This document shows, piece after piece, positions 10,468 through 38,000 of a stretch of 64,000 nt of DNA; positions within the stretch are counted from its first letter, which is position 1, and every line of letters starts with the position of its first letter. Location of the stretch: the NCBI GenBank assembly GCA_045648945.1, contig JAZROX010000027.1, positions 8,898 through 72,897 of the forward strand. The letters are read 5' to 3'. A program made the position numbers and the translations under genes. Below the pieces are notes generated by a model. The model ran no database searches. It was not told the DNA's origin and saw only the letters and a list, made by a program, of their open reading frames with translations. This DNA is from Candidatus Enterousia sp. GTDB taxonomy: Bacteria > Pseudomonadota > Alphaproteobacteria > Rs-D84.

Positions 10468-10742
10468 CACAGCCCTCCGACTTCCTTGCCTTTCCCTTGG
10501 TTTGCGCCGCATTGCGCGACACACAGCCCCACTTAAAAGCTTGCGGGGTCTTATTTATCCAACCTGAGTCTAGCAAGTTTGTATCGATAGGGGCAAGAAC
10601 TTTTTATTTTATTTTTTTCAACGTAAAATCAATAACTTATGCAACATATTCCACGTTTACCGTGTGGTTCCGTCACTTTTTGGGTGACGCGGGAATTTTC
10701 TTGCTTTTTGTTTCGGGATAAATATAATATGTGTCGGCGTTC

Positions 10743-10903: not shown

Positions 10904-10955
10904 GTTAGCCATAGGTTAGCCACCTCCGCGTTCGGTTAGCCAGATTGGTTAGCCA
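10904..10955 (+). promoter_or_regulatory. Four direct GTTAGCCA repeats just upstream of int (candidate arm-type or operator sites)
   Basis: GTTAGCCA at 10904, 10915, 10935 and 10948. The last copy ends 20 nt before the int ATG. The 21-nt AAGTTAGCCATAGGTTAGCCA recurs at 17908-17928. Confidence 0.5.
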
Positions 10956-10974
10956 GGACAAAAGGACAAATTCG

Positions 10975-12183: not shown

Positions 12184-12818
12184 AAAAAGAATATTACGAC
12201 CTTTTGGAGTCGTTGTATTGGATAGCGTTTAGGACCCCGACGCCACCGAAACACCTTATTATGGAAAACGACAAATTATTGGCAGAATCCGCCAAGTTAT
12301 TATACGGCTATTTGACACCCGATTTTAATGAGTTTTTGTCAAATAATGACGAAATTATAGCGGTTGCGGGCGTGGAAAATTACGGAACAAACCAAATAGA
12401 CGAAGTTAATATAACAAGTTTTGCGCCGGATATGGAAATATATGCAACGGATGATATGGTTGTCGATATGGGTGGCCGATATTATTACGGTGTTTGTTTG
12501 TTGGCCGATAAATTGCGTGAAGCGTTTCCGCCATTAACAAAAGAACCAAACTCTATTGCCAGGCGTGATAGCCCAGCGCACGATATTGCTTTTTACTATT
12601 ATGATAAGCATAAACCCATACAGGCCAAGTCGTTATCTAAACTTCTTGCCGACGTATTGCCGGGCTTTAACATATCCGTTCCAGAGCTAAACACTGTTAA
12701 GGCCTGGCTTACCACATTTAATAAAAAAACATATCAACCAACCACAAGCAAGCAACAAATATGTCAACGATATCCGAGAATCTTTGAAAAGTTTCGCAAC
12801 GCGAATCGTGAAATCTAA
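12180..12818 (+). CDS. Hypothetical island protein
   Basis: 212-aa ORF whose start overlaps the int stop by 4 nt (ATGA). No recognisable motif. Confidence 0.6.
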   Translation: MKKEYYDLLESLYWIAFRTPTPPKHLIMENDKLLAESAKLLYGYLTPDFNEFLSNNDEIIAVAGVENYGTNQIDEVNITSFAPDMEIYATDDMVVDMGGRYYYGVCLLADKLREAFPPLTKEPNSIARRDSPAHDIAFYYYDKHKPIQAKSLSKLLADVLPGFNISVPELNTVKAWLTTFNKKTYQPTTSKQQICQRYPRIFEKFRNANREI

Positions 12819-12998
12819 TTTGGTTCACATACAATTCGTATGCGTTTTTGTATTTATTTAGTAAAAATAAGGAATTACAAAAATACGATTCTTAGTGGTC
12901 GTATTTTTTTTATAGCGTTTTACATTGTTATCAACAATTTCAACGGTGGCCACGGTTAAATTGGAAAATTCTAAATTAACTAAAAAAGGATTTGAACA

Positions 12999-13199
12999 AT
13001 GAATTTTGAAAATCTTTATTTAACAACCAGCGAGTTGGCCGACTTATTGCATATAAAACGCAATACCATTGAACGATGGCGCACCAGTAAAATTTGCCCC
13101 ATACCATGGACCCGAATAGGCGGGCGGGTTTTATATGAGCGTTCCGATGTTCTGGCATATTTAGAAAGACAAAAACGCGAAAAAATTAACTGTGATTAA
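12999..13199 (+). CDS. Excisionase/AlpA-family helix-turn-helix protein
   Basis: 66 aa. LTTSELADLLHIKRNTIERWRTSK...RIGGRVLYERSDVLAYL is the MerR-like Xis/AlpA HTH pattern. SD AAAGGA lies upstream. Confidence 0.75.
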   Translation: MNFENLYLTTSELADLLHIKRNTIERWRTSKICPIPWTRIGGRVLYERSDVLAYLERQKREKINCD

Positions 13200-13212
13200 A
13201 GGGGAAACAACA

Positions 13213-15018
13213 ATGGAACAATTTTTAATAAACGCATTAGACGCACAAAACATTTCAACCCCTGACCATATTGAATTTGATGGTTTTACGCGTTGGGGAC
13301 ACAACAAGCAATATTGGTTAATCGCCGTTGGCAATGGATATGCTTTTGGGGATTGGGTATCTGGCGATAGATTTTATGCTTTTCCAGATTCAAACCACGA
13401 ATTAAGTGTAGTCGAAAAACGCGAACTAAATATTAAAATCGCCAAACAACGAGAACTGTTTGTCCAAGAACAAAAACAAGCGCAATTGGCTGTCGCAGAA
13501 ACGGCACGACACGAATACGCAAAAATGGATGTTGCACCAGACGCACATCCGTATTTGAATCGCAAACAAGTATCTGCCGGCCCTGCAAAATACAACAAAA
13601 AAATAAATTCTTTGGTTATACCATTGTTCGATACTGATGGTAATTTGTGGAGTTTGCAATATATTCTGCCAAATGGCGAAAAACGGTTTATGGCTGGCGG
13701 TCGTAAAAAGGGTTGTTTTTGTCCGTTTGGCGCGCCCAATGATACAATAATTATCTGTGAAGGTTTTGCCACGGCCGCGAGTATTTATGCCGCCGTGGGG
13801 GAATATACTGTTGCGGCAATGGATGCCGGAAATTTAGAACCGGTTGCCCAGGCACTTCGCGCGAAATATCCAAATGCTCGTATGATAATCGCTGCGGATA
13901 ACGATTGGGAAAAAGAAAGTAATACGGGCGTGAATTATGCCACTAAAGCGGCCGATGCCACGGGTGCAAAATTGTGTGTGCCAAATATAAACACCCCTGG
14001 TATGTCCGATTTTAATGATATCGCAGTATCACAGGGATTGGACAAAGTTAAGAATCAAATAAGTGAGGTACTCGCACTTACGATGCGTCCATTAACTGGG
14101 GGGTACAGGGTTATAAATGCCGCTGATTTTTTAGACCGAGAATTACCACCCACAGAATATGTCCTGTATCCTATGATTCCCGAAAATGGTTTGTCTCTCT
14201 TGTATGCCGAACGTGGTGCTGGTAAAACATTTATGGCTTTGGCTATTGCCTGTGCGGTTGCTGGTGGATTTGAATTCTTAAATTTCCGTGCGGACAAACC
14301 GCGTAAGGTGTTATACATCGATGGTGAAATGGACGTGAACGAAATGCAAAAGCGCATCAATTTGTTAATAAATGGGTTTGAATCTGAAGGCAAAATTGTA
14401 ATTCGTGAAAACATAAAATTATTTTTGTCGGGGCTTCAAAACAACGCAACCATGCCAGATATCGCGAAACCAGAAGGACAAAAACACATAGAAGCGTTTA
14501 CCCAAGATGTCAATTTGATAATAATTGACAATATCTTTTCCTTATACACGGCCGGTCATGAAAATGATGCGGATAGTTGGACAGGGTATAACGCCTGGTC
14601 GCGTAAGATGCGCAGTATGGGCAAATCAATTTTGTGGTTACACCACACGGGTAAAGACAAAAATCGTGGCCCACGCGGTTCATCAGCGATAGAGGCTATT
14701 TTGAATAGTTCTATCGCACTGGAAGTTTCCCCGGCACATAAAACCAGTGATGGGGCGGACATATTGGTTGAATATCATAAGTCCAGGGGGATATGTGGAG
14801 ACGATGTAAAACCATTTGCCGCCAAATTGGTGTCGGTTAAAAACGAATGTGGAAAAACCGTCGGTTTAAAATGGGTATTGCAGGATACCCCTGCGGAATC
14901 CGTCCATAAGCATATTATGGAACTTCATGATTCCGGCAAAACAATTATGCAAATTGCTGATGAAACCGGTATTTCCAAATCAAAGGTCCAGCGCATCCTA
15001 ACCAAGTACCGCGCATAG
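13213..15018 (+). CDS. Toprim-domain primase fused to a RecA-like AAA ATPase (P4 alpha-like primase-helicase), with a C-terminal HTH
   Basis: Toprim IIICEGFATA and IIAADND. Walker A ERGAGKT. Walker B LIIIDN. C-terminal IMQIADETGISKSKVQRIL. ATG at 13213 follows AAGGGGA. Confidence 0.85.
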   Translation: MEQFLINALDAQNISTPDHIEFDGFTRWGHNKQYWLIAVGNGYAFGDWVSGDRFYAFPDSNHELSVVEKRELNIKIAKQRELFVQEQKQAQLAVAETARHEYAKMDVAPDAHPYLNRKQVSAGPAKYNKKINSLVIPLFDTDGNLWSLQYILPNGEKRFMAGGRKKGCFCPFGAPNDTIIICEGFATAASIYAAVGEYTVAAMDAGNLEPVAQALRAKYPNARMIIAADNDWEKESNTGVNYATKAADATGAKLCVPNINTPGMSDFNDIAVSQGLDKVKNQISEVLALTMRPLTGGYRVINAADFLDRELPPTEYVLYPMIPENGLSLLYAERGAGKTFMALAIACAVAGGFEFLNFRADKPRKVLYIDGEMDVNEMQKRINLLINGFESEGKIVIRENIKLFLSGLQNNATMPDIAKPEGQKHIEAFTQDVNLIIIDNIFSLYTAGHENDADSWTGYNAWSRKMRSMGKSILWLHHTGKDKNRGPRGSSAIEAILNSSIALEVSPAHKTSDGADILVEYHKSRGICGDDVKPFAAKLVSVKNECGKTVGLKWVLQDTPAESVHKHIMELHDSGKTIMQIADETGISKSKVQRILTKYRA

Positions 15019-15026
15019 GCGCAACA

Positions 15027-15070
15027 TTTCCCAATTTCCCACACACTATATAGTGGGAAATTTTGGGAAA
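15027..15070. terminator. Long palindrome / bidirectional terminator between convergent genes
   Basis: TTTCCCAATTTCCCAC-ACACTATATAGT-GGGAAATTTTGGGAAA. Confidence 0.6.
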
Positions 15071-15077
15071 CGAACGA

Positions 15078-17081
15078 TTATTTATCCTCTGGCTCGTCTG
15101 AACGCACAAAAGCATCAAGGGTGGTACACAGCATTGCGATTGGCTCTTCCATTAACATTTTTAAATATATACTATTTTCCGCATTAGTTTTTTTAGCGAA
15201 ATAATCGGCTATATCTTTTATAGATTCTTTAGTGGCCTTTGCGAACAATAAATTTCTATAGTCTAGTTCATTGACAGTATATAAAAAAGCTTCCGCCAAA
15301 TCTGTATTCGTTGTCTTGGTGCCATACAATTTTATTAATCTTTCTGGGTGTGGCAACATGTACAAATAAACGTATAGATTCGTAGCTTCAAAATAATTGG
15401 AGCCGGCAATAAGTTTCTGTTGTTCTTCGGGTAACCGCGATATTATCTCCACAACGTAGCCCATAAAAGTATCGCAAGTTTGTAATTTCTTTTTCAATTT
15501 CTTTACACTTTTATCGGTACTTATATCTGCCACGTAGCGCATAGTATCTATATCAAACGATAGATTGGCGGCCGTTACTATTCCGTCCAAGGATGCCCCC
15601 TTAGAAATTAAATATTTTGCCACATCCAAATGATTGCGTTGTATCGCCTTATTTAATGCTGTCCAACGAATAGGAATATCCTTATTCTCGCCTACCAAAT
15701 CCCCTATCAAATCATAATCAATATTAGCGCCATGTTCTGCTAAGTATTTTACTATATCTAATTGTCCTCGTTCTGCTGCTATAGTTAATGGTGTCCATTT
15801 TTCTGAATCTGTAAAATTAACATCCGCCCCGTGTTCCACCAGGTATTTTATAATATGTAAGTTGTCTAAATTGGTTGCTAATATCAGTGGTGTTACTGTA
15901 TCACAATATTGATTCAAGTCTGCTCCATTATCCACCAATATTTTAATCGTTTCATACTGCTGATTGGCTGTTGCCACACACAATGCCGTAGCCCCTTGGC
16001 GGTTTACCTGATTCATATCTATGTATTTCGTTAAAATTCTTATAATTTCTGTTGGCCTTTCGGCAAAAATTGCTTTCATTAGTGCGGTGCTTCCATCATT
16101 TTCGGTTATTTTTGGGTTTGCGCCCAATTCTAATAGTGTCTGTATATTGTTTTTGTGTCCATGTTCAGCGGCAAAAAATAACGGTGTATGTCCAAACTCA
16201 TTCTGTTTATTTATGTCTGCACCAGATTTTATAAATAGTCTTATTAATTCTGATGTATCGTTTTCATCTCTCGCTAAATACATTAGACCAGTATCCCCAT
16301 GCGTTGTAATTATGTTTATATCGGCGCCATTTTCCAATAGTAATTGTATAATATTTTTATCTTTTTTACTTACTGCCTCCATCAATGCAGACCATTTGTT
16401 ATCTGTAAGCAAATTTACATTTTCCCCACCATCTATCAACGTCCTTATATTATTGATATGCGCTTCCCCAAAGTGGATAGCTTGAGTTAGAATTGTCGTG
16501 CCACCATCATGATATTTTCTGTTAAGATTAGCACCGTGTTCAATTAGTAACTTGATAATATCAGACATATCGTTAGTGTGGTTTATTGCCCAAAAAAGAA
16601 CTGGATAACCACTATTGTCTACAACGTTAACATCTGGTTTGTAACTCAATAATGTTTTAATATTTTCAATATTCGGATGATTATCCGACGACACCATAGA
16701 GTGCATAATTGGTGTAATACCATTGTTTGTATGCCCGTTTACATCCGCACCATTTTCTACAAGTATTTTTATTATATCAGATTTGTTTGTTTTACTAAGA
16801 GCCGCATATCCCAATGGGCTTATTTCTGTTTCTTGGTTCGGAATATAATTTGGGTCCGCATTACTTGCCAAAAGAAATTTCACAATATTTACATCGTTAT
16901 TTATGATTGCATTTACCAAAGGCGTTGTATCTTCTGCATCTGGTTTGTTTATATCCTCTGGACGTTGTTCATAGGCCAATTCAACATCGGCCAATTTTTT
17001 GGAAAAATAATCTGGTTTGGCTGGCGACTTGTCGCAACCAACAAAAACTAACGCACTTAAAATAATTAAAATTTTTTTCAT
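15078..17081 (-). CDS. Ankyrin-repeat lipoprotein (~13-14 ANK repeats plus an unassigned C-terminal domain)
   Basis: Start at 17081 gives MKKILIILSALVFVGC (lipobox). It has many G(A/D)(D/N)(V/I)N..G.TPL...A units, for example KSGADINKQNEFGHTPLFFAAEHGH. The gene is visibly AT-rich relative to its neighbours. Confidence 0.85.
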   Translation of the reverse strand: MKKILIILSALVFVGCDKSPAKPDYFSKKLADVELAYEQRPEDINKPDAEDTTPLVNAIINNDVNIVKFLLASNADPNYIPNQETEISPLGYAALSKTNKSDIIKILVENGADVNGHTNNGITPIMHSMVSSDNHPNIENIKTLLSYKPDVNVVDNSGYPVLFWAINHTNDMSDIIKLLIEHGANLNRKYHDGGTTILTQAIHFGEAHINNIRTLIDGGENVNLLTDNKWSALMEAVSKKDKNIIQLLLENGADINIITTHGDTGLMYLARDENDTSELIRLFIKSGADINKQNEFGHTPLFFAAEHGHKNNIQTLLELGANPKITENDGSTALMKAIFAERPTEIIRILTKYIDMNQVNRQGATALCVATANQQYETIKILVDNGADLNQYCDTVTPLILATNLDNLHIIKYLVEHGADVNFTDSEKWTPLTIAAERGQLDIVKYLAEHGANIDYDLIGDLVGENKDIPIRWTALNKAIQRNHLDVAKYLISKGASLDGIVTAANLSFDIDTMRYVADISTDKSVKKLKKKLQTCDTFMGYVVEIISRLPEEQQKLIAGSNYFEATNLYVYLYMLPHPERLIKLYGTKTTNTDLAEAFLYTVNELDYRNLLFAKATKESIKDIADYFAKKTNAENSIYLKMLMEEPIAMLCTTLDAFVRSDEPEDK

Positions 17082-17094
17082 TTTTTTACCTTTT

Positions 17095-17412
17095 TTATAT
17101 GAGACAAACCCCAAAAACGATTACAAAAAATACCCAATACAACAACGGCATTTTGGTCAAAGACCCAAAACTCGACAACAAATTACCAATAAAATAAACA
17201 ATTATCATACCAAGATAATCGGATAATTCTGCATCACCACGTAAAATTTTTTTCATACTTAGTGACTGTTGAATGGAATTTTCAGGAAATAAACCAAAGC
17301 ACACTTCAATGATGCTGCATAACAGGCAAGTTACAACTCCAGCCAACAAACACATTGTGGCATACTTTGTCAATCCACATATCAATAATATCAAAGCAAT
17401 AATCGATATCAT
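17095..17412 (-). CDS. Small integral membrane protein (~105 aa), upstream of and co-oriented with the ankyrin gene
   Basis: ATG at 17412 after AAGGAG. Hydrophobic segments MISIIALILLICGL.., LLAGVVTCLLCSII, LLYWVFFVIVFGV. Confidence 0.55.
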   Translation of the reverse strand: MISIIALILLICGLTKYATMCLLAGVVTCLLCSIIEVCFGLFPENSIQQSLSMKKILRGDAELSDYLGMIIVYFIGNLLSSFGSLTKMPLLYWVFFVIVFGVCLI

Positions 17413-17794
17413 TTCTCTTCTCCTTAGCGAAAAACTAAACCGCCAGGAAATTGGCGGTCGGGAAGTTTGCGAAATCATACCGTTGTAGATTTTGTTTGCC
17501 TTCGGATAAACCTATTTTATAACAAACACCTCCCGACCTCTCTGTCGGGCAGGATTAACGATGCTGTCGCACCGAACGGTATGGGCTCGCAAAAGCCCCG
17601 AACCCAATTCCCATTGGATTCATTTTGTATTATACATGAAAAAGCGCCTATTTGCAAATACTATGAACGAATCTATCACTACAACGGCTTGCGGTGGGGG
17701 GGGCTCGGGTAGCCCGCCCAAGAAATATTGTAAAAAATTGAAATACATGTTTGCATTTTATTTAACTTTATATATAATAATACCCGTTGAAAGT

Positions 17795-17871
17795 GCACCC
17801 ATGGCCTAACTGGATATGGCGTGTCCCTCCGAAGGACAAGGTTGCAGGTTCGAATCCTGCTGGGTGCGCCA
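17795..17871 (+). tRNA. tRNA-Arg (anticodon CCG), CCA encoded
   Basis: Acceptor GCACCCA/TGGGTGC. Anticodon stem TGTCC/GGACA with loop CTCCGAA. T-arm GCAGG-TTCGAAT-CCTGC. 77 nt. Confidence 0.9.
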
Positions 17872-19334: not shown

Positions 19335-19355
19335 GGCGCATAAGTGCGCCGTTTT
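19335..19355 (+). terminator. Rho-independent terminator
   Basis: GGCGCA-TAAG-TGCGCC followed by GTTTT. Confidence 0.6.
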
Positions 19356-20961
19356 GAATTACATTGATAATCACATAATCTTTTGGTATAATTTACGCAC
19401 GAAAGGAATAAAAATTGCATTGAATCTATTAAATGATAAAAGTTTTAATGATTATTTAACCGATATCACATATGCGGGCGAACACGCACCAAAACAACAA
19501 AATTTTAGGGGCGAATTTGAAAGTCCAGACTATGTTTATCAACATCGTGATGAAATCATCAAGGGGATTTTAAATCAGTATATCAAACTGCGTGTGCGTG
19601 ATTATATTTTGAACCTGGAAAACGAAGCCGCGTTTATTCCAGTGGACGAAAACCGGACCGATTTACCGTCTTGGACGGGGGCGGTATTTAACAAAGGTGG
19701 CAAACTGTACGAATTTGATGGCACAAAAATGTCCGACAAATTACGCACAGACATTATAACCGTGCGTGATTATTTGTATGATGTGGCGGGCATGTATGTC
19801 GATAAAGTCATAGAAACGGCCAAACATACAAAGCGCAAACCGCGCATACGCTATGATTATTTAAAAACCAGTAATGAATTTGCGACCTTTGATATGGCGT
19901 TAGATGCGGCGCATCAATGGCACGAACACATGGCCGAAGAATTGGCACGACGGAACAAAAGACAAGAATTATTAAAAAAATCTTTGGTTGGTGTGCAACA
20001 TATTATGGATTTGCCGAATGGTATGGTTGCATATCAATTGATGACACCGGACGCGTTAGATTTTGAATCGGATTACATGGGACATTGTGTTGGTCGTGGT
20101 GCGTATGATGCGGATGTGGCAAGTGGCAGAACAAAAATATATTCGATTCGTGATGAACACGGTGAACCGCATGTCACGTTAGAGGTACGCGGGACCGAGG
20201 TTCACCAAATCAAGGGCAAACAGAACAGTGCCCCCGTACGTAAATATGTTCCGGCGGTTGTAAAATTTATAGAATCCCAACATCTTGAAATAGTAAATGA
20301 TTTAAAAAATCTTGGGTTGATACGGCAAGATGGTAAATTATATGACATATATAACCTGCCGAAAAATTTTGTGGTAAAGGGTGATTTAGATTTATCCGAT
20401 ATGGAATTAACGGAATTGCCGGACCTTAGTACCGTTACGGTTCTTGGTAAGTTTGATTGCAGTAACAACCAGTTGACCAGCCTAACCGGTGCCCCAGAAA
20501 GTGTTGGTGGGTATTTTGTTTGCAACCACAACAAATTGACCAGCCTGACCGGTGCACCGGAAAGTGTTGGTGGTGATTTTTTTTGCAGCTACAACCAATT
20601 GACCAGCCTTGAACACGCACCAAAAAGTGTTGGGGGGCATTTTATGTGCATCTACAACCAATTCGGGGCACCAAAAAGTGTTGGTGGGTATTTTTATTGC
20701 GAAGGCAACCAATTAACCAGCCTTGTCGGCGCGCCAAAAGATGCGACGAGTTATTTTTTTGGCTACTTGAACACCCCCAAAAAAATGATTGCACCGGAAT
20801 ATCTTGCGGGTAAGAATACGAATATTCCGGATGATATTTTGAAAATAATGATAGATAATTATAAAAAACATAAAAAACAAAACTTTAATCGCGGAACGGC
20901 AAGTGTTATCGATAAAGAACGCGCAACCGTCCCCGCCAATAATCGCAACAAATCTATGTAA
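19354..20961 (+). CDS. PcfJ-like domain protein with a C-terminal leucine-rich repeat array (start uncertain)
   Basis: MGHCVGRGAYDADVASGRTKIYSIRDEHGEPHVTLEVRGTEVHQIKGKQNSAP resembles the PcfJ-like HCVG motif region. The C-terminus has 5 x ~22-aa F.C..NQLTSL.GAP.SVGG units. The ORF-track start is a TTG inside the terminator. In-frame TTG at 19420 or ATT at 19414, after AAAGGA, are alternatives. Confidence 0.7.
   Translation: MNYIDNHIIFWYNLRTKGIKIALNLLNDKSFNDYLTDITYAGEHAPKQQNFRGEFESPDYVYQHRDEIIKGILNQYIKLRVRDYILNLENEAAFIPVDENRTDLPSWTGAVFNKGGKLYEFDGTKMSDKLRTDIITVRDYLYDVAGMYVDKVIETAKHTKRKPRIRYDYLKTSNEFATFDMALDAAHQWHEHMAEELARRNKRQELLKKSLVGVQHIMDLPNGMVAYQLMTPDALDFESDYMGHCVGRGAYDADVASGRTKIYSIRDEHGEPHVTLEVRGTEVHQIKGKQNSAPVRKYVPAVVKFIESQHLEIVNDLKNLGLIRQDGKLYDIYNLPKNFVVKGDLDLSDMELTELPDLSTVTVLGKFDCSNNQLTSLTGAPESVGGYFVCNHNKLTSLTGAPESVGGDFFCSYNQLTSLEHAPKSVGGHFMCIYNQFGAPKSVGGYFYCEGNQLTSLVGAPKDATSYFFGYLNTPKKMIAPEYLAGKNTNIPDDILKIMIDNYKKHKKQNFNRGTASVIDKERATVPANNRNKSM
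20451..20745 (+). repeat. Tandem ~66-bp coding repeats (LRR units)
   Basis: Repeated CAACCA(G/A)TTGACCAGCCT..GG(T/C)GC(A/C)CC(A/G)GAAAGTGTTGGTGG. One unit carries an in-frame deletion. Confidence 0.8.
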
Positions 20962-23390: not shown

Positions 23391-23440
23391 TTAAAAACTT
23401 GCAATTTCCAGTATAAAAGATTATAATCAACGGGCCATTT

Positions 23441-23745
23441 AATGGTGATGATTCTGAACCCGTTGCGGAATAGACGTTTTGGACCCGGGGGCGGTACCCG
23501 GCACCTCCACCAATAAAAATTATGGGGGTGTATTAGTTTCGACAGACGCAATAAAGGCAAATGGCTGAATCCGACGTGGTGTCGTTAAAGACCAATAAAA
23601 AAATGAATGCGAACGATAATGTTCGTCTTGCAATGGCTGCCTAATACTTAGGTTGGATATAATTGGCAATTGTTGATTATATCTGTTCAGCTTTTTGCGG
23701 GGCCGTCCGGGTGCCTGGCACCAGAAACCCGGTAATTTTTGAAAA
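23441..23745 (+). ncRNA. ssrA: Two-piece (circularly permuted) tmRNA gene: acceptor piece ending ..CACCTCCACCA at 23512, coding piece starting GGGGGTG at 23524
   Basis: 5' GGGGGTG pairs with CACCTCC (G3:U wobble), followed by ACCA. Tag ORF GCG AAC GAT AAT GTT CGT CTT GCA ATG GCT GCC TAA (23609-23644) encodes ANDNVRLAMAA. Outer boundaries are approximate. Confidence 0.8.
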
Positions 23746-24020: not shown

Positions 24021-24049
24021 AAAAATCCCCATGTTTTGGGGATTTTTTT
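24021..24049. terminator. Bidirectional terminator
   Basis: AAAAATCCCCA-TGTT-TTGGGGATTTTTTT. Confidence 0.7.
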
Positions 24050-25598
24050 AATTCACATTTACCGTATCATCGTATATGGAATACGTCACACCGCCATATT
24101 TGACCTTTAATTTTTGCGTGGTGCCAACGTTCATAGGCACATCCGCCGTCGTCATATTTCCATAGAATATATCATTTCCGACCCGCACATGCATCGCCGG
24201 CGTGGTCTTTTTTACGCCATGCAAATACAAAGTCGCGTCGCCAAAGTGCAAAATGTGTCCGCATTGGTTCGCATTCGACATCCCCGCCGGCGAATAAAGC
24301 CCGGCCGCACACGCGGCTATACCCTGGGACGCCGAGGCGTTAAAATCATAGGTGCCGCCGGTGCAATATGAACCCGCCGCGCACGCAGTGCATTCGTTAT
24401 ACGCCGCCGGCAAATACGTTCCCGCCGCACATGTTTGGGACGCGGTCACCCGGCACGAAACATGCCCGCCCCAGTAATCTTCGTAACCAGTAATATACTG
24501 CGTCATACCCGCCGGACATGTAGTGGCAAGATTTGTATCATCAAATGTTGACAGCCACATATTGTTTGCATACGTAGAACCATTCGCGATTAATCCCGCA
24601 AAAGCGGATGGCGGAATATACCCGGTAACATTGTAACATTTGGCAAATGTTCCACCAAATGCGTTAGACCCGACCTGTGTAAGCCCACTAAAAATTTCTG
24701 ATGGGATTGCTGTTATTCCGGTATGAGCAAATGTATTTTGAAACGCATAGTTAGCTGCGTATGTAATGTTAGCAAACAAATTATTCGGTATATGGGTTAA
24801 CCTTGAACAATCATGAAAAGTGTTAGAAAATACAAACCAATCTGCTCCAGTTATGCCACTAAACAGATTATCTGGTAAACTGGTTAACAAATCACAGGCA
24901 TAAAAAGCCCCTTCAAACATACCACCGGCCACAAAATTTTTGACACTACTAAATAAATTTTCCGGTATTGATGTCAAACCAGACCTCGCAAAAGTGTAAG
25001 AGAACATATAATACGTACCCTGGATATTATTATAAGAACCAAATAATGTTCCTGGTATCTCACTCAAATTTTGTGCACCATTAAATGTCAGAAAAAAATT
25101 TGGCAATGAAGTATCATTACTATTTCCGGAAAGGTATGGGAACATAGCAGACAAATCGCCATATACGGAGGCAATTTTTTCCTCTGAATGATAATCGACA
25201 TTATAAAATTTTATTACTGCCACCTGTTGGGTGCTTGATCTATACCAACCCGTGGCAACGCCGCCCATACGAATTGTTTTGACGCCGCCGGTGGAATATG
25301 TGCATGTGTACAGTGTCTCGGTCGTGCCTGTGCGGGTTATTGTATCACCCGAAACCCCGTCGCCGGATAATGTTCCGTCATCACCGCAATCAACATAGAA
25401 TGTTCCCATCGCGGACATATAAAACCCAAATGTATCATTCGCGGAAAGTGACGTCGTCGTAAGGCTGAATTTCGCCGTTTGGCAATTTGAACCATCGCCC
25501 GCGACATCAATCTGGTCCGATGTGCACGCCGCATTGGCCGCGGGGCTCGCGAACGCGCCCAACATTATCACCAAAAACGCAACCAAAAATTGCTTCAA
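24048..25598 (-). CDS. Secreted BspA-type LRR protein (~516 aa), short paralog of 6121-10467
   Basis: TTG at 25598 is homologous to the TTG start of the large paralog and gives MKQFLVAFLVIMLGAFASPANA. N-domain CTSDQIDVAGDGSNCQTAKFSLTTT.., LRR F..C..LTS(I/L)P.NLF, C-terminal domain CGHILHFGDATLYLHGVKKTTPAMHV..SIYDDTV. The ORF is open to the GTG at 25652, but that stretch is occupied by a repeat element that is non-coding elsewhere. Confidence 0.8.
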   Translation of the reverse strand: MKQFLVAFLVIMLGAFASPAANAACTSDQIDVAGDGSNCQTAKFSLTTTSLSANDTFGFYMSAMGTFYVDCGDDGTLSGDGVSGDTITRTGTTETLYTCTYSTGGVKTIRMGGVATGWYRSSTQQVAVIKFYNVDYHSEEKIASVYGDLSAMFPYLSGNSNDTSLPNFFLTFNGAQNLSEIPGTLFGSYNNIQGTYYMFSYTFARSGLTSIPENLFSSVKNFVAGGMFEGAFYACDLLTSLPDNLFSGITGADWFVFSNTFHDCSRLTHIPNNLFANITYAANYAFQNTFAHTGITAIPSEIFSGLTQVGSNAFGGTFAKCYNVTGYIPPSAFAGLIANGSTYANNMWLSTFDDTNLATTCPAGMTQYITGYEDYWGGHVSCRVTASQTCAAGTYLPAAYNECTACAAGSYCTGGTYDFNASASQGIAACAAGLYSPAGMSNANQCGHILHFGDATLYLHGVKKTTPAMHVRVGNDIFYGNMTTADVPMNVGTTQKLKVKYGGVTYSIYDDTVNVN

Positions 25599-25631
25599 AT
25601 TATTCTCTCTTTTCTTTCTGGCGTCAATAAT

Positions 25632-25678
25632 CACTACCCCCCGGTGTTCCACACCGTACCCCTTCGCCAGCGAAGGGG
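25632..25678 (-). repeat. Composite hairpin element, copy E6 (leader of the LRR gene)
   Basis: The minus strand reads CCCCTTCGCTGGCGAAGGGG, then TACGGTGTGGAACACCG, then GGGGGTAGTG. Confidence 0.65.
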
Positions 25679-25900
25679 AATTAAAAAACCGCCAATGGGA
25701 ATTGACGGTCGGGGCGTTGAGAAATCATAAGATACAATGACTCCGTGCTTTTATGTATATGCAAACGGCACCCCGACACGCGGGGATTTTTCAAAAGCGG
25801 TGCAAAAACACGAAAATCCAACGGATTACGATGCCATTGCACCGGTATCTTATGGGCCTCTCACAGTCCCGAACACAGACTCCCATCTGGTTCTGGTGTA
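25679..25900 (-). promoter_or_regulatory. Conserved structured leader, copy A (paralogous to 49154-49370)
   Basis: Shares blocks with copy B: AATTGACGGTCGGGG, GGCACCCCGACACGCGGGG, GCGGTGCAAA, GATTACGATGCCATTGCACCGG. On the minus strand it ends with hairpin CCGTCAATTCCCATTGGCGG plus TTTTTT. Confidence 0.55.
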
Positions 25901-26010
25901 AATTTTAATCTAAATTACCGACCCATTGCAAGCACTTTTTTGAAAATAAAAATATCGGTATCATACGGGGCTTGAAAACCAATAAAATTTAGTCTATATT
26001 TAATGTTGCT

Positions 26011-27768
26011 ATGAAAGAATATATTTTACCTTGTCGTGATTTGGTTGTGCATCCGGGAATGACCGTGCCGGCCTATGTGGATAACCCCATATCGATTGCG
26101 TGTGTTGATATTGCCGCGTCTACGCGCCAACGGATAATTATTGCGCCACAACACAGTGCCGCGTATCCCGCCGCGCCCGAAGACATATACGAATATGGCA
26201 CAATTGGCGAAATTGCCCAGGTTCTGCGTATGCCCGACGGAACAATACACACCATCGTTCGTACAACAAATGTTGTGCAAATGAGTGATATTGAAATAAA
26301 CGACGGGGTATTTTCTGCGCGTGTGTTAGAGGTTCCCATGATGAACGATATGGAAGACGAACGCACGGTTCAAATGCGTGAAAAAATTTTTGAAACCATC
26401 CAGGCGATGTCTCTATTCCGTAAATTCAAGGCGGATAAATTGCGCAGCACGATTCAAAGTTACCCGATGCCCGCGTTTATTGATTCTGTCATTCAAACGA
26501 TGGAAATTGATACCGACACGGCCGTCAAAATTTTAACCACGCCATCGTGGTACGATAAAATGGTAATGCTGTTTGAACAGGTGCGGTTGGCGTACGAAAC
26601 GTCCAAGGTTGAAGACAGTATCAATCGCCGCATCAGTATGCAGATGGAACAAGGCCGTCGTGAAGCGATTCTGCAGGAAAAAATGCGCGCAATTCAAAAA
26701 GAAATGGGCGAAGACGACGGCGAAAACGATACCGCCAATATGCGCAAAAAAATCGAAAAATCCGCTATGCCCGCCGATGTTAAAGAAAAGGCCTTGTCCG
26801 AATGGAAGCGTATGCGTAACATGTCGCCGATGTCCAACGAGGGCGGTTTGATAAAAACCTATTTGGACGAATTGTTGGCTATGCCGTGGGGCAAATCGGA
26901 TAAAACACAAATTGATTTAAACACTGCGCGCAAAATATTGGACAGTGAACATTCCGGAATGCGCCCGGTCAAAGAACGTATACTGGAACACATTGCCGTT
27001 ATGAAAAAAACCGGCTCTGCCAAGGGGACCATCCTGTGCTTTGTTGGTGCGCCGGGCGTTGGCAAGACGTCGTTGTGCAAATCTATTGCGGCCGCGTTGG
27101 GACGTAAATATCACCGCATATCATTGGGTGGCGTTTCAGACGAGGCGCATTTCCGTGGTCACCGCAAAACCTATATCGGGTCCCAACCGGGACGTATTAT
27201 GGACGCATTGAAACGCGTCAAGGCAAACAACCCGGTCATTGTTCTGGACGAAATTGATAAAATGGGACGCGATTGGCGTGGCGATCCAGAATCCGCCTTG
27301 TTGGAAGTATTGGACCCAGAACAGAACAAAGCGTTCCGCGACCATTATCTTGAGGTGGATTTTGACCTGTCCAACGTTATGTTTATCGCGACCGCGAACA
27401 GTTTGAATTTGTCGGGCGCATTAAAAGACCGTATGGAAATTATCGAGATTCCGGGTTACAGTGAAGACGACAAAGTACAAATTGCCCGCGAACACTTGAT
27501 TGCGCGTGCGGCGAATGACACTGGGTGGAATCCAGAAAACATTCAAATTTCCGATGACGCAATTCGGCACATAATTCGTAAATATACGGCTGAGGCCGGT
27601 GTGCGGCAACTGCAACGCGAATTAACGGCGATTCTGCGGCGGCGCCTATTGGAAAATGACGGCGAAGATGTGGCAACGGATTTCACAATCGAAAAAATCG
27701 ACGATTTATTATCGCTGCAACAATCGGCCGGATTTTCAAAGCGCATAGGGTTCGGGGTAAGTATCTAG
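26011..27768 (+). CDS. lon: Lon-like AAA+ protein: LON N-domain plus ATPase, lacking the S16 protease domain
   Basis: 585 aa. LPCRDLVVHPGMTVP.., Walker A GAPGVGKTSL, LDEIDKM, ALLEVLDPEQNKAFRDHYLEVDFDLSNVMFIATAN, AGVRQLQREL. It stops at ..RIGFGVSI, where the E. coli Lon peptidase domain would begin. Confidence 0.85.
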   Translation: MKEYILPCRDLVVHPGMTVPAYVDNPISIACVDIAASTRQRIIIAPQHSAAYPAAPEDIYEYGTIGEIAQVLRMPDGTIHTIVRTTNVVQMSDIEINDGVFSARVLEVPMMNDMEDERTVQMREKIFETIQAMSLFRKFKADKLRSTIQSYPMPAFIDSVIQTMEIDTDTAVKILTTPSWYDKMVMLFEQVRLAYETSKVEDSINRRISMQMEQGRREAILQEKMRAIQKEMGEDDGENDTANMRKKIEKSAMPADVKEKALSEWKRMRNMSPMSNEGGLIKTYLDELLAMPWGKSDKTQIDLNTARKILDSEHSGMRPVKERILEHIAVMKKTGSAKGTILCFVGAPGVGKTSLCKSIAAALGRKYHRISLGGVSDEAHFRGHRKTYIGSQPGRIMDALKRVKANNPVIVLDEIDKMGRDWRGDPESALLEVLDPEQNKAFRDHYLEVDFDLSNVMFIATANSLNLSGALKDRMEIIEIPGYSEDDKVQIAREHLIARAANDTGWNPENIQISDDAIRHIIRKYTAEAGVRQLQRELTAILRRRLLENDGEDVATDFTIEKIDDLLSLQQSAGFSKRIGFGVSI

Positions 27769-27778: not shown

Positions 27779-28186
27779 ATGAATATCTTCAAGGCCATGC
27801 AAATTTGTGGCGACATAAAAAGACTGTATCAAAACAAAGGCGAAGATGATTTCGCATCTTGGAATTACAGCACGTGGTACCAAATTCGCACACCAAATGA
27901 CGGTAAAATCCTGGAATCGCATTATCGCGAAAAATCGCTGTCACCCAATGAATTTGTGCCGGTTAATTTCTGGACCGCACTTATTGGGACCGAAGGGGAT
28001 CATGCGACAATTCCGCAAGAATTTACGGTGACATTTAACAATAATGGGATGCTGCCACACGCGCCAATGGAAAAAGATTATGTTATCCATGGAATTGCCG
28101 CGCGATTGATATATAATCGAATCAAAAAAGAACACTTGGCGGATTGGCATAAAACACTAAAACAACAACGGGAAAAACGCAAATGA
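27779..28186 (+). CDS. Small orphan protein, family A, member 1
   Basis: 135 aa. Its N-terminus M.IF.A..IC.DIK.L and C-terminus AR(L/I).Y.R.KKE are shared with 28257-28658. Confidence 0.6.
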   Translation: MNIFKAMQICGDIKRLYQNKGEDDFASWNYSTWYQIRTPNDGKILESHYREKSLSPNEFVPVNFWTALIGTEGDHATIPQEFTVTFNNNGMLPHAPMEKDYVIHGIAARLIYNRIKKEHLADWHKTLKQQREKRK

Positions 28187-32015: not shown

Positions 32016-35000
32016 ATGAAAATTCTGCGGATTTTCGGGCTGTTTGCGTTGTTTTTATGTACGGGTTTTGGTTACGCACATGCCGGAGATGAATATTATT
32101 CTTTCACGCTGAATGATAACGGAGGCAGCGGGGGCAGAGTTATTGGTAATAAAACGGACGGCTTACTACACTACGGAGTGGCGTGGGGGTATAATGAGGA
32201 CAGAGGATTCGAAGCGCTTCCGGGGGCTGGTAACACCCCGGTCACCTCGACTAATCCGCCCGTGATTACTGAAGCACCAACAACAACGGTCCCACACGTG
32301 CATTTTTATGGTTATGCACTTGATCAAAATTATACTATTTCAAATACCGAGAACAGAATTATAAATTCTGCCAGACAATTTTTTACAGACCAACGGGCAT
32401 TAACGTCTTTTAGACAGAACAATACCACGCTTTACGCCATATGGGCACCAAATAATTATCAGATACAATTGGATGACAACGGCGACAACATAACAAGAGC
32501 TGGCCAGGTGTATTCAAGTTCTGGGTATTCATTATATAAACGATATGGAACTGATTGTTTTATCGTCGCCCCTACACTCAACACTAATGAGTTAGAGCAA
32601 AATACATGTATTTCTTCAATATATCAAACGCCACAGAGGACCGGTTATACATTTGCGGGATATTGGACGGTTTCACAAGGTACCGGCGGCACAATGATTG
32701 TAAAACCAAATGGTGATTTCGAAACTGGTACAAGCACCACGTTCACCCAGAATTCAACAATATATGCACGGTGGACGCCAAAAGTTTTAACGATCACGTT
32801 GGATAAAAATAATTCGACAAGTGGTGCTACAGATTCCAACCCGACGACCGTATATTTGAAATATAACACCGGGTGGTTCAGTGATGCGACGGCAACAACA
32901 TCCATTTCGCATCTGACCACAAATCCGGAACGTCCGGGGTACACTTTTGGTGGATTTACAAAACGTGCAAACGGCGGGACCCAGGTTATAGACTCATCGG
33001 GTGAATTTTTAACCACAACCGCGGCATTAACGGTATTAAGCGAGAACGGATCCATATACGCACAGTGGACGGGACAAAACACATATACCATTCAATTGCG
33101 GTCAAACGGTGGCGATATTGACTATGCAATATATCACCGAAATGGGAATTTCTATTGCGAGTCGTCGGCAACAACACAGATTCTATCGACTCAAAACATA
33201 TTTGACAGATGTAGTTTTACCAAGCCGTCTTCGGCCGCGGGCGAATTTGACGGGTATTGGTCCGCCACATCGGCCGGATCGCAATACATTGACCGCGAAG
33301 GGAAAATACTGTATAATTCCACCGTCACCGGTGGTATGCGGTGGTATGCCCAATACCAGGCCACATGCGGCAGTTTGATTGCGTTAGAACCGAATGGCGG
33401 AAGTTTTTCCGGAATATGCAGTGGGTTTGCGCCGACACCTGTGCAAAACAACAATGGGGATTGGGTGTTGCAACCACTGGGCAATGGATGTAGACCGACA
33501 CAAAATGGCGTAACATTTGCCGGATATTATTACTATGATGAAAACTCAGGCACCTATACACAATATTATGACGATAGTTTGACCGCGGTTGGCACGTGGC
33601 CGTTTTGCAATGAAGACAAAGTTGTATTGATTGCATTATGGAACCATGGAGGTTGTAATTGTGGAGAATACATACCGGCGGGTTATGTGCAGTGTGTAGA
33701 ATGTCCGATTGGATCGTATTGTTCCGGGGTTATATCGAACCAGGTTCCGTATAACGCCGACCAAGGAATCGAATCTTGCGCCAAACAGTGTGGCGGCAAT
33801 GGATATACATCTGATGCCGGGGCATGTAATATCAACGAATGCTATCAGGCATGTAAAACGGATTGCATGCGGCCAAATGATTTTTGCGCCGTCCCGTCGG
33901 CGGAATGCCAATATACTAATTCTTCGGTTGATGGCAAAGAATATTGTAACACTAACACCGGGTGCCAAATTCCCAACACAAATGCAAGTTGGTGCGAAAT
34001 TTCCAGTTGCCCGGCAAATTCGTACTATGATGACCCGTATTGCAAAGCTTGTAATTCCGGGTTCTCTAACAATGGTGGCATGGGCGGGGCGGACACATGC
34101 GTAAAGGATTGTTCTGTCCAATGCACATGGGATGATAACATGTGTCCAGCCAACGCAACATGCACACACACACAATCCAGTTTAAGTGGAAATGTAAACC
34201 AAACACAAGACCAAGACAAATGTTATTCTGGTGGCAACCAAATTATGCCATTTGCGTGTGAGTTCAGCTTTACGTGTAATGAAGGGTATGAATGGGATTC
34301 GACGACGAACCAATGTGTAATGACACCAACATGTGACACCCAGGTAACACTTAACCCGGACAGCGGCAACGGTGGCAGTTTTGCCAGTAATTGCACATAT
34401 GGCACATCGGCATTAACACTGACACTGAACACGAACGACAATCAATGGTATTTAGGACCGTCGTCATTACCGGCCGGTTGCGCTGCGACGCGTGATGGGT
34501 ATACTTTTGCCGGATATACATATAATAACAATCGGTATTATGCTGATAATTTAAACGTTGTCTCTAACCAACCATGGGACGCATGCAATTTAAATAGTGC
34601 GGTTTTAACGGCGGATTGGACAGCAAAGTGTAACGAGATAACATTTAATGAGAACTATGGAAACAACGGTATTATATCGGGTGTATCGCAACACAAACTA
34701 ACCGCGGATACGGATTGGTATGACGGCACCTGCAAGAGTACCGTGACCGCAAGCGTAACGTCACTGGACACTACCGGACACAGAGTGTTCAAAGGATTCT
34801 ATTTATCATCGAATAATACAGATAATACGGACCAAGTGTTTGATGCCAGTGGTGCCCCTACAAATTATGGTAACAACTGGACGATTAATGCGAATACCGT
34901 GCTGTACGCGCATTGGGATTGCGATACGGGGTATGAATGGGATTCGACGACGAACCAATGTGTAGAACAAGGACCAAAATCAGCATGCGATAGTACAGCG

Positions 35001-38000
35001 ACGCTTGATCCAAACGGTGGGGATTTTACTAATACAAACACATGCAGCGGTGAAATAAACCCAATATATGATTTTTCAACAAACACATGGTCAGCCCCGG
35101 CCAGTTTGAATGCGGGATGTAGGCCGATACGGACCGGATATACTTTTAATGGGTATGTTGGGGAGAATAATGGACCGATGTATTATGATAGCAACTTGTA
35201 TCGTTCAACACCGTTATGGCCAAATAATTGCAATGTTGCCAAAATCAACTTGGTTGCGGGTTGGACCGGTAATTGCATGGAAATACAATTTGATGATAAT
35301 AATGCCGCTGGCACCAATGTCAACAGCCAGAACCATCAACATAAACAAATCGGAAATGCCGCATGGATGGACACCACATGTGGGAAAGAGTTACTAAACA
35401 CCCCAACGGCGTACACACCGACGAACGACCATGCAACATTTTTAGGTTATTATACAGAAAAGAATTCAACCAGTGGGATCCGGGTTTTTGACGGTCATGG
35501 TAACGCGACCAGTGCCGGAAACGGTTGGACAATTTCTGGGACGGCCACATCGCCGGTTACCCTGTATGCCCGTTGGGATTGCGATACGAATTATAATTGG
35601 GATTCGCAAACAAAAGCATGTGTTCAAAAACCGTATGAGGTCCGGGTTAAATGTAATCCAGAGGATACAAACATTCTTACATTAACTTATTTAGCGTACA
35701 ACGAATCCATGGAATTCTCAGATGCATATTTAGCAGAGGCATGTAAAAACGCCCCCCGGTGTAATACAAATTGGCAACAAGAAGATTGGAATATATATTT
35801 GAATGCCGCTTTGACGCAGTTATCGAATGATTCTCCGCATGCCACACCAATAACAATTACCGGTGGGGACTATAATAATGCAACAAAGATAACATTTGTT
35901 CCGAACTGTGTGGAAGATACATATTCTGTAAAATACAAATGTTATAAAGACGATTCAAATGGTAAGGTGGACAACGAAGTTCCGCATTCAAATTATACTG
36001 TGCAGCCAATACGTTGGTATGAAGACTGCAAAATCAACGAGAATTCTTCTATGCCCGATTATTTCAATGGATGGTTATTTAGCGGTGATGGTACTGAGTA
36101 TAGCGAGGGTGACACTATATCAAATTGGTCGTATGGAAACAATGCAACATTTGTGCCGGTGTATAATGCGACATTTGATTGCAACACAGATCATTGGCAG
36201 GCACCCAGTGGCGGGAATCCAACGACACAAACGGTAGTACTGGGCGACAGTATGACCATGCCGGCAATGAGTTGTGTGCCGAAATCGGCATACGCCGGAT
36301 GGGTAAATACAAATTCGGAATGGAACACGATCTATGCCGCGGCAATGGAGACCCCGGTTCCAAGTGCAACGTGTTCAGCGGGCAACGTCACGGCCAATGG
36401 TGGCACGACATTTAATTGGAACTGTCCGACGAATTTGACCTTTACACCCGACGATGAATTGATAACAAAAACCATCGAAATCAGTTGCGGCACCGGCGGG
36501 ACCACGGGCACAATTGAGATAACATACGACACCCAGAACCAAACGTCAACCATGGTCAATAATTGGCTGCATGACAATTGCGGTGGTCATTGCCACAATC
36601 CGTCTGGTGATGCACGTGGATATTTGAAATTCTGTGGCACGTGGGGAAACAACGCGGTTCCGAACGTAACACAAATACCGGGGACCAATTGTTGGCGCGC
36701 AGAGCGGGATTATAACCTGAATCAAATTAACTGGGCAAATGTGACCGAGTTTAATATAACCGCAATATCGCATTGTCCAAAATACGTCAATTATAAATGC
36801 AGTGCGGACGCCACAGAGGTTTATAATGAACCGCCCTACTCCTATATGGAAGATGAATATCGCGTATTAGATCACTCGACGGTTGGGTGCGATGGTTATG
36901 GATATGAATTGGAAAACTGGGTCAAAGAAGATGATGAAAGTGTGACCTTTGACGAGAACGAAACCGTTGCATCATGGCCGTACGACGAATCGATTACGCT
37001 GGTTGCACAATGGAAATACTGTCCGGATGGACAATATTGGGATGAAGCCACCGGCACATGCCTGAGTTGTGCGGAAAATACCGGTAATCAATATAAACTA
37101 AGTAAAGCCCCATATAATTGGAGTATTGACCAATGCTATCGCAAATGTTCGGAAACCTGTGTGAACACAGACGTAACACAGCTTTACACCAGTTACGATT
37201 TACAGAAATTCGAAAGTGATAATCTCCAGGTTGAATTCTATGGAAATAGCACAATGAATCCCGGGACATGTGGGCATGTTACATACTGTCCGTATGTCAT
37301 CAAGGATGGCGACACATATGTATTCAAGGTTCGTGGTGTTCCGGTGAACTTTATCGATAATAATAATGCTACCGTTGATACATACCATATTGTTGGTGCG
37401 GGCAACACATCTGATGATGTGGCGGCGGCATTCCTGTGGAGTCAGATTGTCGGTTCGGCCCAGAAGTATCAGTTCACGGTTTCGGGCAATACCCATTATT
37501 CTGTGCCGATTGTGTATCCAATATACAGCGCACCGTATAATGAACCGGCCGGATATACGTTCAATGGATATTACAATCCACGTGGCGGACACAAATATGT
37601 CCAGGACGACGCGGAATTAAGCAAAACCATTGCCCAGAGCGCGGTTGATGGAATTAACGCTGCGACCGGTGATTTGCACCGCGACCTGTATGCGGGATAT
37701 GATTCAAATGAATACACCGTAACATATCAATGTGGTGCCGGGTCGGGGGCGGACACCACAAACACTGCAACATACGGTGACGGATATGACGTTCTGTACC
37801 TTGCAGATACGCCTTGTCAATATACTGGACACGATTTCTTGGGTTGGAAATATATGAATGGTACCGATTATGATGAAGGCGAGCATTTCACGTGGGAATA
37901 TACGGACGCAAATCCAACGTTCACCGCACAGTGGAGTGGCGTGAACACGTATAATATTATCTATGAAAATATGACGAATGCCGAAGCATCCGCGACCGGC

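Follow-up and report, generated by a model that had tools for sequence, protein, structure and literature searches.

The 64,000-nucleotide stretch of Candidatus Enterousia sp. DNA analyzed here, referred to as the window (contig JAZROX010000027.1, assembly GCA_045648945.1), carries several copies of a structured 5′ leader RNA, each ending in an intrinsic terminator ahead of a Shine–Dalgarno (SD) sequence and an open reading frame (ORF). The leader is strongly supported as a real and previously uncatalogued family of cis-regulatory leader RNAs. Each copy is taken to be a cis-acting 5′ leader whose most probable function is riboswitch-like attenuation of transcription, with a probability of about 0.65. 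Three features expected of such devices were found together: a covarying structured domain, an intrinsic terminator within the 5′ untranslated region (UTR) of a gene on the same strand, and mutually exclusive alternative pairings that involve the terminator. An initial annotation of the window had recognized the conserved structured leader with its terminator before the SD and ORF, and had read it as the layout of an attenuator, riboswitch or antitermination leader; both points hold over about 220 homologues. The pseudoknot, the long-range helix P3 and the three-strand switch described below were absent from that annotation.

Leader copies in the window

Copies A and B both lie on the minus strand, where an alignment of 25580–25960 to 49070–49450 has a mean column identity of 79% and contains long stretches without any difference. 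There are exactly two occurrences of the 19-mer CCCCGCGTGTCGGGGTGCC in the window, with 0 expected from shuffled sequence. The shared blocks reported in the initial annotation were thus recovered at their places, upstream on the coding strand of ORFs 24048–25598 and 48136–49089. Its count of two was incomplete, since a search with a profile hidden Markov model (HMM) and a covariance model, with filters off, found three canonical members (A, B and C), all on the minus strand, and the window also holds a reduced fourth variant. The copies, with their promoters and the genes that follow them, are listed below, where scores in bits refer to covariance model R1 and P1 is the 5′-terminal hairpin.

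25681–25893 (−): copy A leader RNA, from P1 to the terminator U-run; nhmmer E 3.6e-42, 145.3 bits
25902–25931 (−): promoter-like site of copy A, TTGCAA, 18-nt spacer, TAAAAT
24048–25598 (−): gene 3′ of copy A, secreted repeat protein that starts at TTG and carries a signal peptide
49163–49371 (−): copy B leader RNA, found with the profile HMM and the covariance model; 143 bits
49403–49408 and 49379–49384 (−): copy B promoter, TTGCGT and TAAGAT, assigned by eye
48136–49089 (−): gene 3′ of copy B, secreted protein of the largest leader-associated family
17430–17621 (−): copy C leader RNA, match span 17422–17625; nhmmer E ~1e-38, 160.4 bits
17652–17657 and 17629–17634 (−): copy C promoter, TTGCAA, 17-nt spacer, TATAAT
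17438–17459 (−): copy C terminator, followed directly by the SD GGAG and the ATG at 17412
17095–17412 and 15078–17114 (−): genes 3′ of copy C, a 105-amino acid membrane protein and an ankyrin-repeat lipoprotein

Copy A has a predicted folding energy of −77.9 kcal/mol (RNAfold, z −4.4), and 8 nt separate the end of its −10 hexamer from the initial G of P1. This arrangement is general. In 210 upstream regions aligned on the G at position 0, which is present in 99%, TTG was found at −36 to −34 and an A/T-rich −10 element at −13 to −7, with an A/T-rich tract further upstream. From the position of this sigma-70-type signal, transcription is predicted to start at the first base of P1 or 1–2 bases before it.

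Copy B is overlapped by an ORF on the plus strand (49207–50190) that encodes RNase PH. The RNase PH domain begins only at residue 100, which moves the real start of that gene to about 49477 and leaves copy B in intergenic sequence. Synteny extends to the locus of family member L024, where the leader also adjoins RNase PH. Copy C is more diverged than A and B, lacks helix P5 and carries no inserted GGGGTAG repeat (described in a later section).

Copy C drives the last two genes of an island-like block (10945–17114) beside tRNA-Arg (17795–17871). The block contains a tyrosine integrase (10945–12183), a Toprim/AAA_25/HTH protein (13192–15018) and the ankyrin-repeat lipoprotein, of 678 amino acids.

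Extent of the family

Members were collected in two independent sets. The first used a pattern derived from the 5′ blocks on a species-representative genome collection and gave at least 117 loci, while the second used an independent 3′-side pattern on metagenomes and gave 120 loci, 102 of them full length. Since only 49 of these 102 also match the 5′ pattern, the 5′-pattern scan sees about half of the family. Together the two sets hold 217 distinct full-length members, and part of their sequence invariance comes from the search patterns used to collect them. The copies are 70–85% identical and differ by hundreds of compensatory base-pair changes.

Nearly all first-set members come from metagenome-assembled genomes (MAGs) of gut, rumen and faecal Alphaproteobacteria, Candidatus Enterousia or related, apart from a few contigs that are evidently mis-binned. 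At least 8 copies were found in assembly JAZROL01 and at least 7 in CAMZDE01, and genomes of Enterousia / Rs-D84 are reported to measure 0.75–1.0 Mb (PMC12306168). The housekeeping genes of the window are 73–80% identical to those of Enterousia / Rs-D84 MAGs. At the syntenic locus shared by copy B and L024, the leader reaches 84–85% identity against the 73–80% of the neighbouring housekeeping genes.

The Rfam check named beforehand in the initial annotation gave no family: at gathering thresholds, Rfam 15 matched only the transfer-messenger RNA (tmRNA) and tRNAs in the whole window. A scan at E up to 10 of the three canonical copies, together with L009 as a typical member, gave only noise of at most 21 bits, versus thresholds of 45–120. 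Identity with sRNA-Xcc1 was rejected (20.8 bits versus a threshold of 53), and that alignment served just as a pointer to helix P8. The leader was unmatched in phage and plasmid collections. The family was not described in the literature searched for Enterousia and Rs-D84 riboswitches and for the P4 sequence, and Fremin & Bhatt 2021 yielded no trace of it, either in the text or in 200 supplementary files.

Conserved fold

The leader folds into helices P1–P7 with two pseudoknot-type contacts. The elements of the 5′ domain are located as follows in copies A and B.

25871–25893 (−): copy A P1, 5′-terminal hairpin GAACCAGA / UCUGUGUUC
25854–25869 (−): copy A P2, GGACU-loop-GGCCC; its loop UGAGA (25859–25863) is the pseudoknot 5′ strand
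25718–25722 (−): copy A pseudoknot 3′ strand UCUCA, partner of the P2 loop UGAGA
25846–25853 with 25727–25734 (−): copy A P3, long-range helix of AUAAGAUA(C) with (G)UAUCUUAU
25829–25844 (−): copy A P4, CGGUGC-AAUG-GCAUCG
49350–49371 (−): copy B P1
49325–49332 with 49207–49214 (−): copy B P3
49338–49342 with 49198–49202 (−): copy B pseudoknot, P2 loop UAGCA and 3′ strand UGCUA

P1 covaries and is 96% paired, with a loop that by eye is GNRA-like in most members. It is followed by P2 (family consensus GGGCU-loop-AGCCC), whose loop is complementary to 5–6 nt between the conserved UGAUU and AAC, forming an H-type pseudoknot. This complementarity amounts to 5.47 Watson–Crick pairs in cis versus 2.71 in trans over 30 distinct sequences. 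Pairing in the pseudoknot is 96–98% with 4–5 types of pair, and its three central pairs are hypervariable in sequence and ~97% paired. P3, of 7–9 bp, begins directly after P2 and closes ahead of UGAUU; its complementarity is 7.8 bp in cis versus 3.8 in trans, and every pair covaries. P5 is a variable helix, and P7 a hairpin of variable length followed by the conserved GGAAUCA.

In the whole fold, 90–92% of cells are paired, compared with 81–82% for shuffled alignments and 31–44% after sliding of the partners; on the 108-sequence alignment the three values are 90.4%, 81% and 33–44%. The score for covariation is 0.34–0.35 versus 0.16–0.18 for shuffled alignments (0.341 versus 0.176 on 108 sequences), a value that none of 500 shuffles reached. 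On this alignment, the three central pseudoknot pairs and all pairs of P3 and P7 show 4–6 pair types. The invariance of P4 and of UUCGGGRCU in the 108 sequences is imposed by the 5′ search pattern. In the set that was not selected on P4, this helix does covary (GC 91 and AU 7 at one pair, UA 92 and CG 2 at another). The fold was replicated in the 3′-pattern metagenome set, with pairing of 97.3% in P4, including compensatory changes, 97.8% in the pseudoknot, 93.6% in P3 and 98% in P2.

Outside the helices, the halves of the sets that are unbiased by the patterns show near-invariant unpaired bases: UUC between P1 and P2, GU(U/A)A after P4, GGAAUCA after P7, UGAUU and AAC. A hairpin formed by CCGGTGCAA and TTGCACCG, proposed in the initial annotation, is indeed what RNAfold predicts for copy A; these segments offer no informative variation, and the covariation of the family favours the local P4 (CGGUGC/GCAUCG) instead.

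Terminator and alternative pairing

The 3′ part of the leader contains three strands that compete for pairing next to the terminator.

25769–25785 (−): copy A P6, CCCCG-CGUGU-CGGGG, proposed anti-antiterminator
within 25769–25778 (−): copy A mid strand GUCGGGGUG, which is the P6 3′ strand
25707–25716 (−): copy A P8 3′ strand CGCCCCGACC, which pairs with the mid strand; proposed antiterminator
25681–25710 (−): copy A terminator, GACCGUCAAU-UCCC-AUUGGCGGUU, then U6
49251–49260 and 49187–49196 (−): copy B mid strand and P8 3′ strand
49168–49190 (−): copy B terminator, then U5

The terminator stem has a mean length of 7.7 bp, and at least 5 T occur within 8 nt 3′ of the stem in 180 of 214 members. 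Both this terminator and the hairpin CCCCGCGUGUCGGGG, which corresponds to P6, had been noticed in the initial annotation and proved real and conserved.

The shared strand GGUCGGGGNG has two alternative partners, one upstream (P6) and one downstream (P8). The consensus of this mid strand is GGUCGGGG(N)G. Its upstream partner is CCCUGAC, which gives P6 as CCCUGAC-loop-GUCGGGG, and its downstream partner is C(N′)CCCCGACC, located just 3′ of AAC, which gives helix P8, a pseudoknot contact relative to P3. The P8 3′ strand ends in GACC, and with these same four bases the terminator stem begins.

Both pairings are maintained in the family, P6 at 90–97% and P8 at 96–98% (98.4% of cells in one count). 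The N/N′ pair of P8 is AU in 59 members, UA in 20, GU in 21 and GC in 4, and G-to-A changes are matched by C-to-U changes. P6 shows compensation of its own, for example CCCUAAC/GUUGGGG, while the P8 3′ strand remains CCCCGAC. Counts of triplets over the three strands show both kinds of change, for example A-U in P6 with U·G in P8, and U-A/A-U triplets.

Mean energies were −9.7 kcal/mol for the P6 hairpin, −18.4 for the P8 duplex, −11.5 for the full terminator and −4.6 for the terminator deprived of GACC. The sums for the two states, P6 with the terminator and P8 with the truncated terminator, are therefore −21.2 and −23.0 kcal/mol, and the states lie no more than 4 kcal/mol apart in 89 of 108 members. 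Covarying and nearly isoenergetic alternative pairings of this kind fit a transcription-attenuation switch. The attempt to derive ON/OFF polarity from nested RNAfold energies was rejected, the P8 state being pseudoknotted. Mimicry of an SD/anti-SD pair by the mid and 3′ strands, considered by eye, was dropped, as a key position varies (A, U or G).

Reduced variant

The fourth element of the window is a shortened form of the leader, with one further relative in the collection.

57655–57815 (−): reduced leader variant; covariance model R1 22.4 bits (match 57645–57768), RNAfold z −6.15
2573–2761 (−) of L082: relative of the reduced variant, upstream of a secreted protein

The window variant begins with a P1-like hairpin. 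Its P2 loop UCAGAAAA pairs with UUUUCUGA, and P3 is formed by ACACCAGGUA and UACCUGGUGU. The switch consists of P6 (CCAACC / GGUUGG) and P8 (GGUUGGAG / CUCCAACC), which overlaps the terminator. P4, P5 and most of the conserved junction nucleotides are missing. GGAG and an ATG at 57637 follow, and the downstream ORF (57374–57637) encodes 87 amino acids. Since reduced variants keep the pseudoknot and the switch without P4 and P5, these two elements form the conserved core, and sub-families exist.

Downstream genes

In 180 of 188 members the terminator is followed, at a median distance of 15 nt, by an SD and an ORF of 40 or more amino acids on the same strand, in agreement with the gene association that the initial annotation had proposed as a check. 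The ORF starts within 30 nt in 113 of 188 members on the downstream side, compared with 8 of 200 on the divergent side.

The 111 ORFs of the first set fall into 53 unrelated families. The largest has 30 members and includes the gene after copy B (48136–49089), for which no family was found in Pfam, PHROG or NCBIfam. Most first-set ORFs carry a signal peptide or lipobox and likewise have no match in these three databases. For the protein after copy A (24048–25598), a Pfam scan gave no family; it matches phrog_9915, and a homologue also lies downstream of the leader in L001. Other downstream genes encode GT2, GT6 and RgpF glycosyltransferases and DNA methylases of three classes (EcoRI-type, N6/N4 and C5), and the remainder include a GIY-YIG protein, a resolvase-like protein and small membrane proteins. 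The description of two different secreted-protein genes therefore applies to copies A and B and understates the context, which spans the 53 or more families and extends to cytoplasmic enzymes.

A leader-peptide attenuator was rejected: the frames of landmarks relative to the commonest ATG are uniform (50/44/40) and the ORF lengths are scattered.

The gene after copy B has a paralogue in the window at 2330–3322 (−), which also encodes a secreted protein, shares the SD context GGGGTAGACCAAGGAGAGCAA(C/G)CATG and is ~80% identical in DNA sequence across the initial 300 nt. The leader stands only before 48136–49089; upstream of 2330–3322, its place is taken by the two-hairpin repeat, in three copies.

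Proposed mode of action

As a riboswitch-like attenuator, the leader could work in the following way. P6 would form first during transcription and leave the terminator intact, so that the default state would be OFF. If the pseudoknotted 5′ domain, with the helix between the P2 loop and its partner stacked on P3, were stabilized, the 3′ strand would be placed beside the mid strand. P8 would then replace P6, the terminator would lose GACC and its U-run contact, and RNA polymerase would read through (ON). The stabilizer would most likely be a bound effector recognized by the near-invariant unpaired nucleotides. The opposite polarity is possible; since a nested-only energy model cannot score the pseudoknotted state, the assignment of ON and OFF is a guess.

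This organization shares features with several known systems. SAM-I and purine riboswitch platforms and T-box leaders also place a structured domain before an intrinsic terminator in the 5′ UTR, and in them, too, one strand is shared by mutually exclusive helices (anti-antiterminator, antiterminator, terminator). The leader differs from them in that it matches no Rfam 15 family, its P8 is pseudoknotted relative to P3 and its regulon is not one pathway. In ZTP (pfl) and other pseudoknot-closed riboswitches, as here, the loop of a 5′ hairpin contacts a distal 3′ segment that adjoins the expression platform, so that pseudoknot formation can determine whether the terminator forms. The ZTP sequence is unrelated, however, and the leader is larger. 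Some species have many copies per genome of the c-di-GMP-I (GEMM) and c-di-GMP-II riboswitches, which precede motility genes and genes for surface and secreted proteins. These riboswitches have GNRA tetraloops, class II has a pseudoknot, and the control of a regulon by a global signal is a plausible analogy, but their covariance models miss the leader even at E up to 10, and their helices and conserved nucleotides differ. The comparison is an analogy only, and nothing here implicates c-di-GMP.

Several observations weigh against a riboswitch-like attenuator. The case is built on sequence and computed folding, with an energy model restricted to nested structures. The heterogeneous context of 53 families implies no ligand, whereas classical riboswitches indicate one pathway. 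The U-runs are interrupted in some members. Part of the apparent invariance was imposed by the search patterns, and the reduced variants (57655–57815 and L082) keep the helices and not most of the junction nucleotides, which weakens the idea of an obligatory ligand pocket.

Among the alternatives, the one that survives best, though unlikely, is factor-dependent processive antitermination in the style of RfaH/ops, LoaP, EAR or put, in which the RNA or a bound protein modifies RNA polymerase. The polymerase would then read through the leader's own terminator and also through downstream Rho-dependent or intrinsic terminators of the accessory genes. RfaH, UpxY and LoaP typically control envelope, surface and horizontally acquired genes, and LoaP-controlled leaders also contain a terminator. 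In both respects the leader is similar: its regulon of envelope glycosyltransferases, surface proteins and horizontally acquired restriction–modification genes resembles the targets of NusG paralogues, and the terminator lies inside it. RfaH/ops with JUMPstart, LoaP, EAR and put are likewise leader-encoded elements. However, the leader has no conserved ops-like element, its GGGGTAG belonging to another repeat. No NusG paralogue, GGDEF protein or other candidate partner was found among the window ORFs, a result that is not informative for the whole genome. Moreover, the structure overlaps its own terminator, and a covarying isoenergetic switch in this position is needed for local attenuation but not for processive antitermination.

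A constitutive 5′ UTR module that senses nothing is quite improbable. In such a module P1 would set mRNA stability, termination would be leaky and fixed, and the strength of the pseudoknot and P3 would tune the output. The location of P1 at the extreme 5′ end would suit this function, as would the variation of the pseudoknot and P3 sequences between copies, even in one genome, the mixed regulon and the reduced variants lacking the conserved junctions. Nevertheless, a conserved pseudoknotted structure of more than 200 nt with near-invariant unpaired nucleotides exceeds what stabilization or a fixed attenuator needs, and such a module would not require two states to be kept isoenergetic.

It is very improbable that the copies are independent genes for trans-acting small RNAs with unrelated neighbours downstream. 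Each copy does have its own promoter and terminator and a predicted discrete product of ~200 nt. Yet the SD and ORF follow the terminator so closely in 180 of 188 members that there is no room for a second promoter. The context is also strongly asymmetric relative to the divergent side, and at least 8 diverged paralogues per sub-1-Mb genome would be unusual for a trans-acting small RNA.

Spread by transposition of a mobile repeat without RNA-level function (a miniature inverted-repeat transposable element (MITE), a repetitive extragenic palindromic (REP)-like repeat or a promoter-carrying cassette) is hardly tenable, despite the many copies, the unrelated and partly horizontally acquired genes behind them and the true dispersed repeat adjoining copies A and B, because no terminal inverted repeats (TIRs) flank the three window copies, where the inverted repeats are RNA helices only, and because identities of 70–85% with compensatory changes are not those of recent near-identical insertions, the copies keep a constant orientation with respect to their genes, synteny between species is seen at one locus and no phage or plasmid collection matches. 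The same inspection led to the rejection of an invertible promoter, a MITE or a TIR element for the three window copies, no terminal inverted or inverton-type repeats being found around them.

For the riboswitch-like attenuator, a regulon made up of surface and secreted ORFans, glycosyltransferases and restriction–modification genes is more suggestive of a global signal than of a metabolite from one pathway. A bolder version, put forward tentatively and with less than even odds, is that the leader represents a new riboswitch class that senses one such signal, for example a nucleotide second messenger or a host or partner cue, and that its dozens of copies act as master regulator of surface, secretion and defence genes in gut Alphaproteobacteria with genomes below 1 Mb. 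If so, these bacteria would have, in effect, an RNA regulon in place of transcription factors. The presence of at least 8 copies in one genome of less than 1 Mb, and of 3 plus a variant within 64 kb, suggests that one RNA device controls a large share of the surface and accessory genes.

Support for the fold is unusually good for an orphan regulatory RNA, with covariation in each of the two pseudoknot-type contacts and in the three-strand switch, and the leader is open to direct testing. It offers a handle on how uncultured gut symbionts (Candidatus Enterousia / Rs-D84) regulate interaction genes, and an annotation marker that flags many otherwise unannotatable ORFans as co-regulated.

A separate two-hairpin repeat

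Between the terminator and the SD of copies A and B lies a repeat of ~46 nt with the layout CCCCUUC-loop-GAAGGGG, a second hairpin that covaries between copies, and GGGGUAG(A). Its occurrences in the window are the following.

25634–25678 (−): two-hairpin repeat between the copy A terminator and the SD
49106–49151 (−): two-hairpin repeat between the copy B terminator and the SD
3339–3384 (−): two-hairpin repeat
61917–61962 (+): two-hairpin repeat
~3395–3455 (−) and 3615–3697 (−): looser two-hairpin repeats

The exact pattern thus occurs 4 times in the window against 0 expected, besides the two looser copies, and on both strands. The sites lie just upstream of SDs, and one directly follows the stop codon of alanyl-tRNA synthetase. 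Each of the five GGGGTAG sites in the window is part of this dispersed repeat, and one such site lies at the 3′ end of a gene. A similar module occurs downstream of the leader in 6 of 188 members; similar modules are present in L016 and L099. The GGGGTAG repeat is a separate element and not part of the leader RNA. The composite GGGGTAG element that the initial annotation had counted as a segment of the leader is therefore this 46-nt repeat, and its likeness to the ops element used by RfaH falls with it, since GGGGTAG sits in a separate repeat and is absent from most leaders: GGCGGTAGnnTG is not conserved in the leader, and GGGGTAG is missing from copy C and ~97% of members.

The module looks REP-like, being a short extragenic palindromic unit with GTAG beside a hairpin. 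It shares with REP units and bacterial interspersed mosaic elements (BIMEs) the short two-hairpin form and the intergenic location on both strands and at both gene ends. It differs in that no REP-associated tyrosine transposase (RAYT) was recognized in the window and that its second hairpin covaries.

Other features of the window

A permuted two-piece tmRNA gene of the alpha type was located at 23395–23736 (+), with 172 bits against RF01849, which fits an alphaproteobacterial origin. A Lon-like ORF at 26011–27768 (+) has the substrate-binding, AAA+ and lid domains without the protease domain. It is followed by a short ORF (27779–28186, +) with no Pfam match, and the pair may represent a split or truncated Lon or a frameshift.

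Repeats were found in several further places. The giant ORF 32016–41936 (+) encodes 3306 amino acids and has internal repeats of 645–1300 nt, and ORF 6121–10524 (−) encodes a 1467-amino acid protein with a Listeria–Bacteroides repeat. The PcfJ-like ORF 19354–20961 (+) contains 63-nt tandem repeats at 20428–20742. In addition, a 47-nt direct repeat of 98% identity occurs at 54727–54773 and 54896–54942, with a spacing of 169 nt; its second copy overlaps the 3′ end of tRNA-His (54924–55000, −) and may be an att-like remnant.

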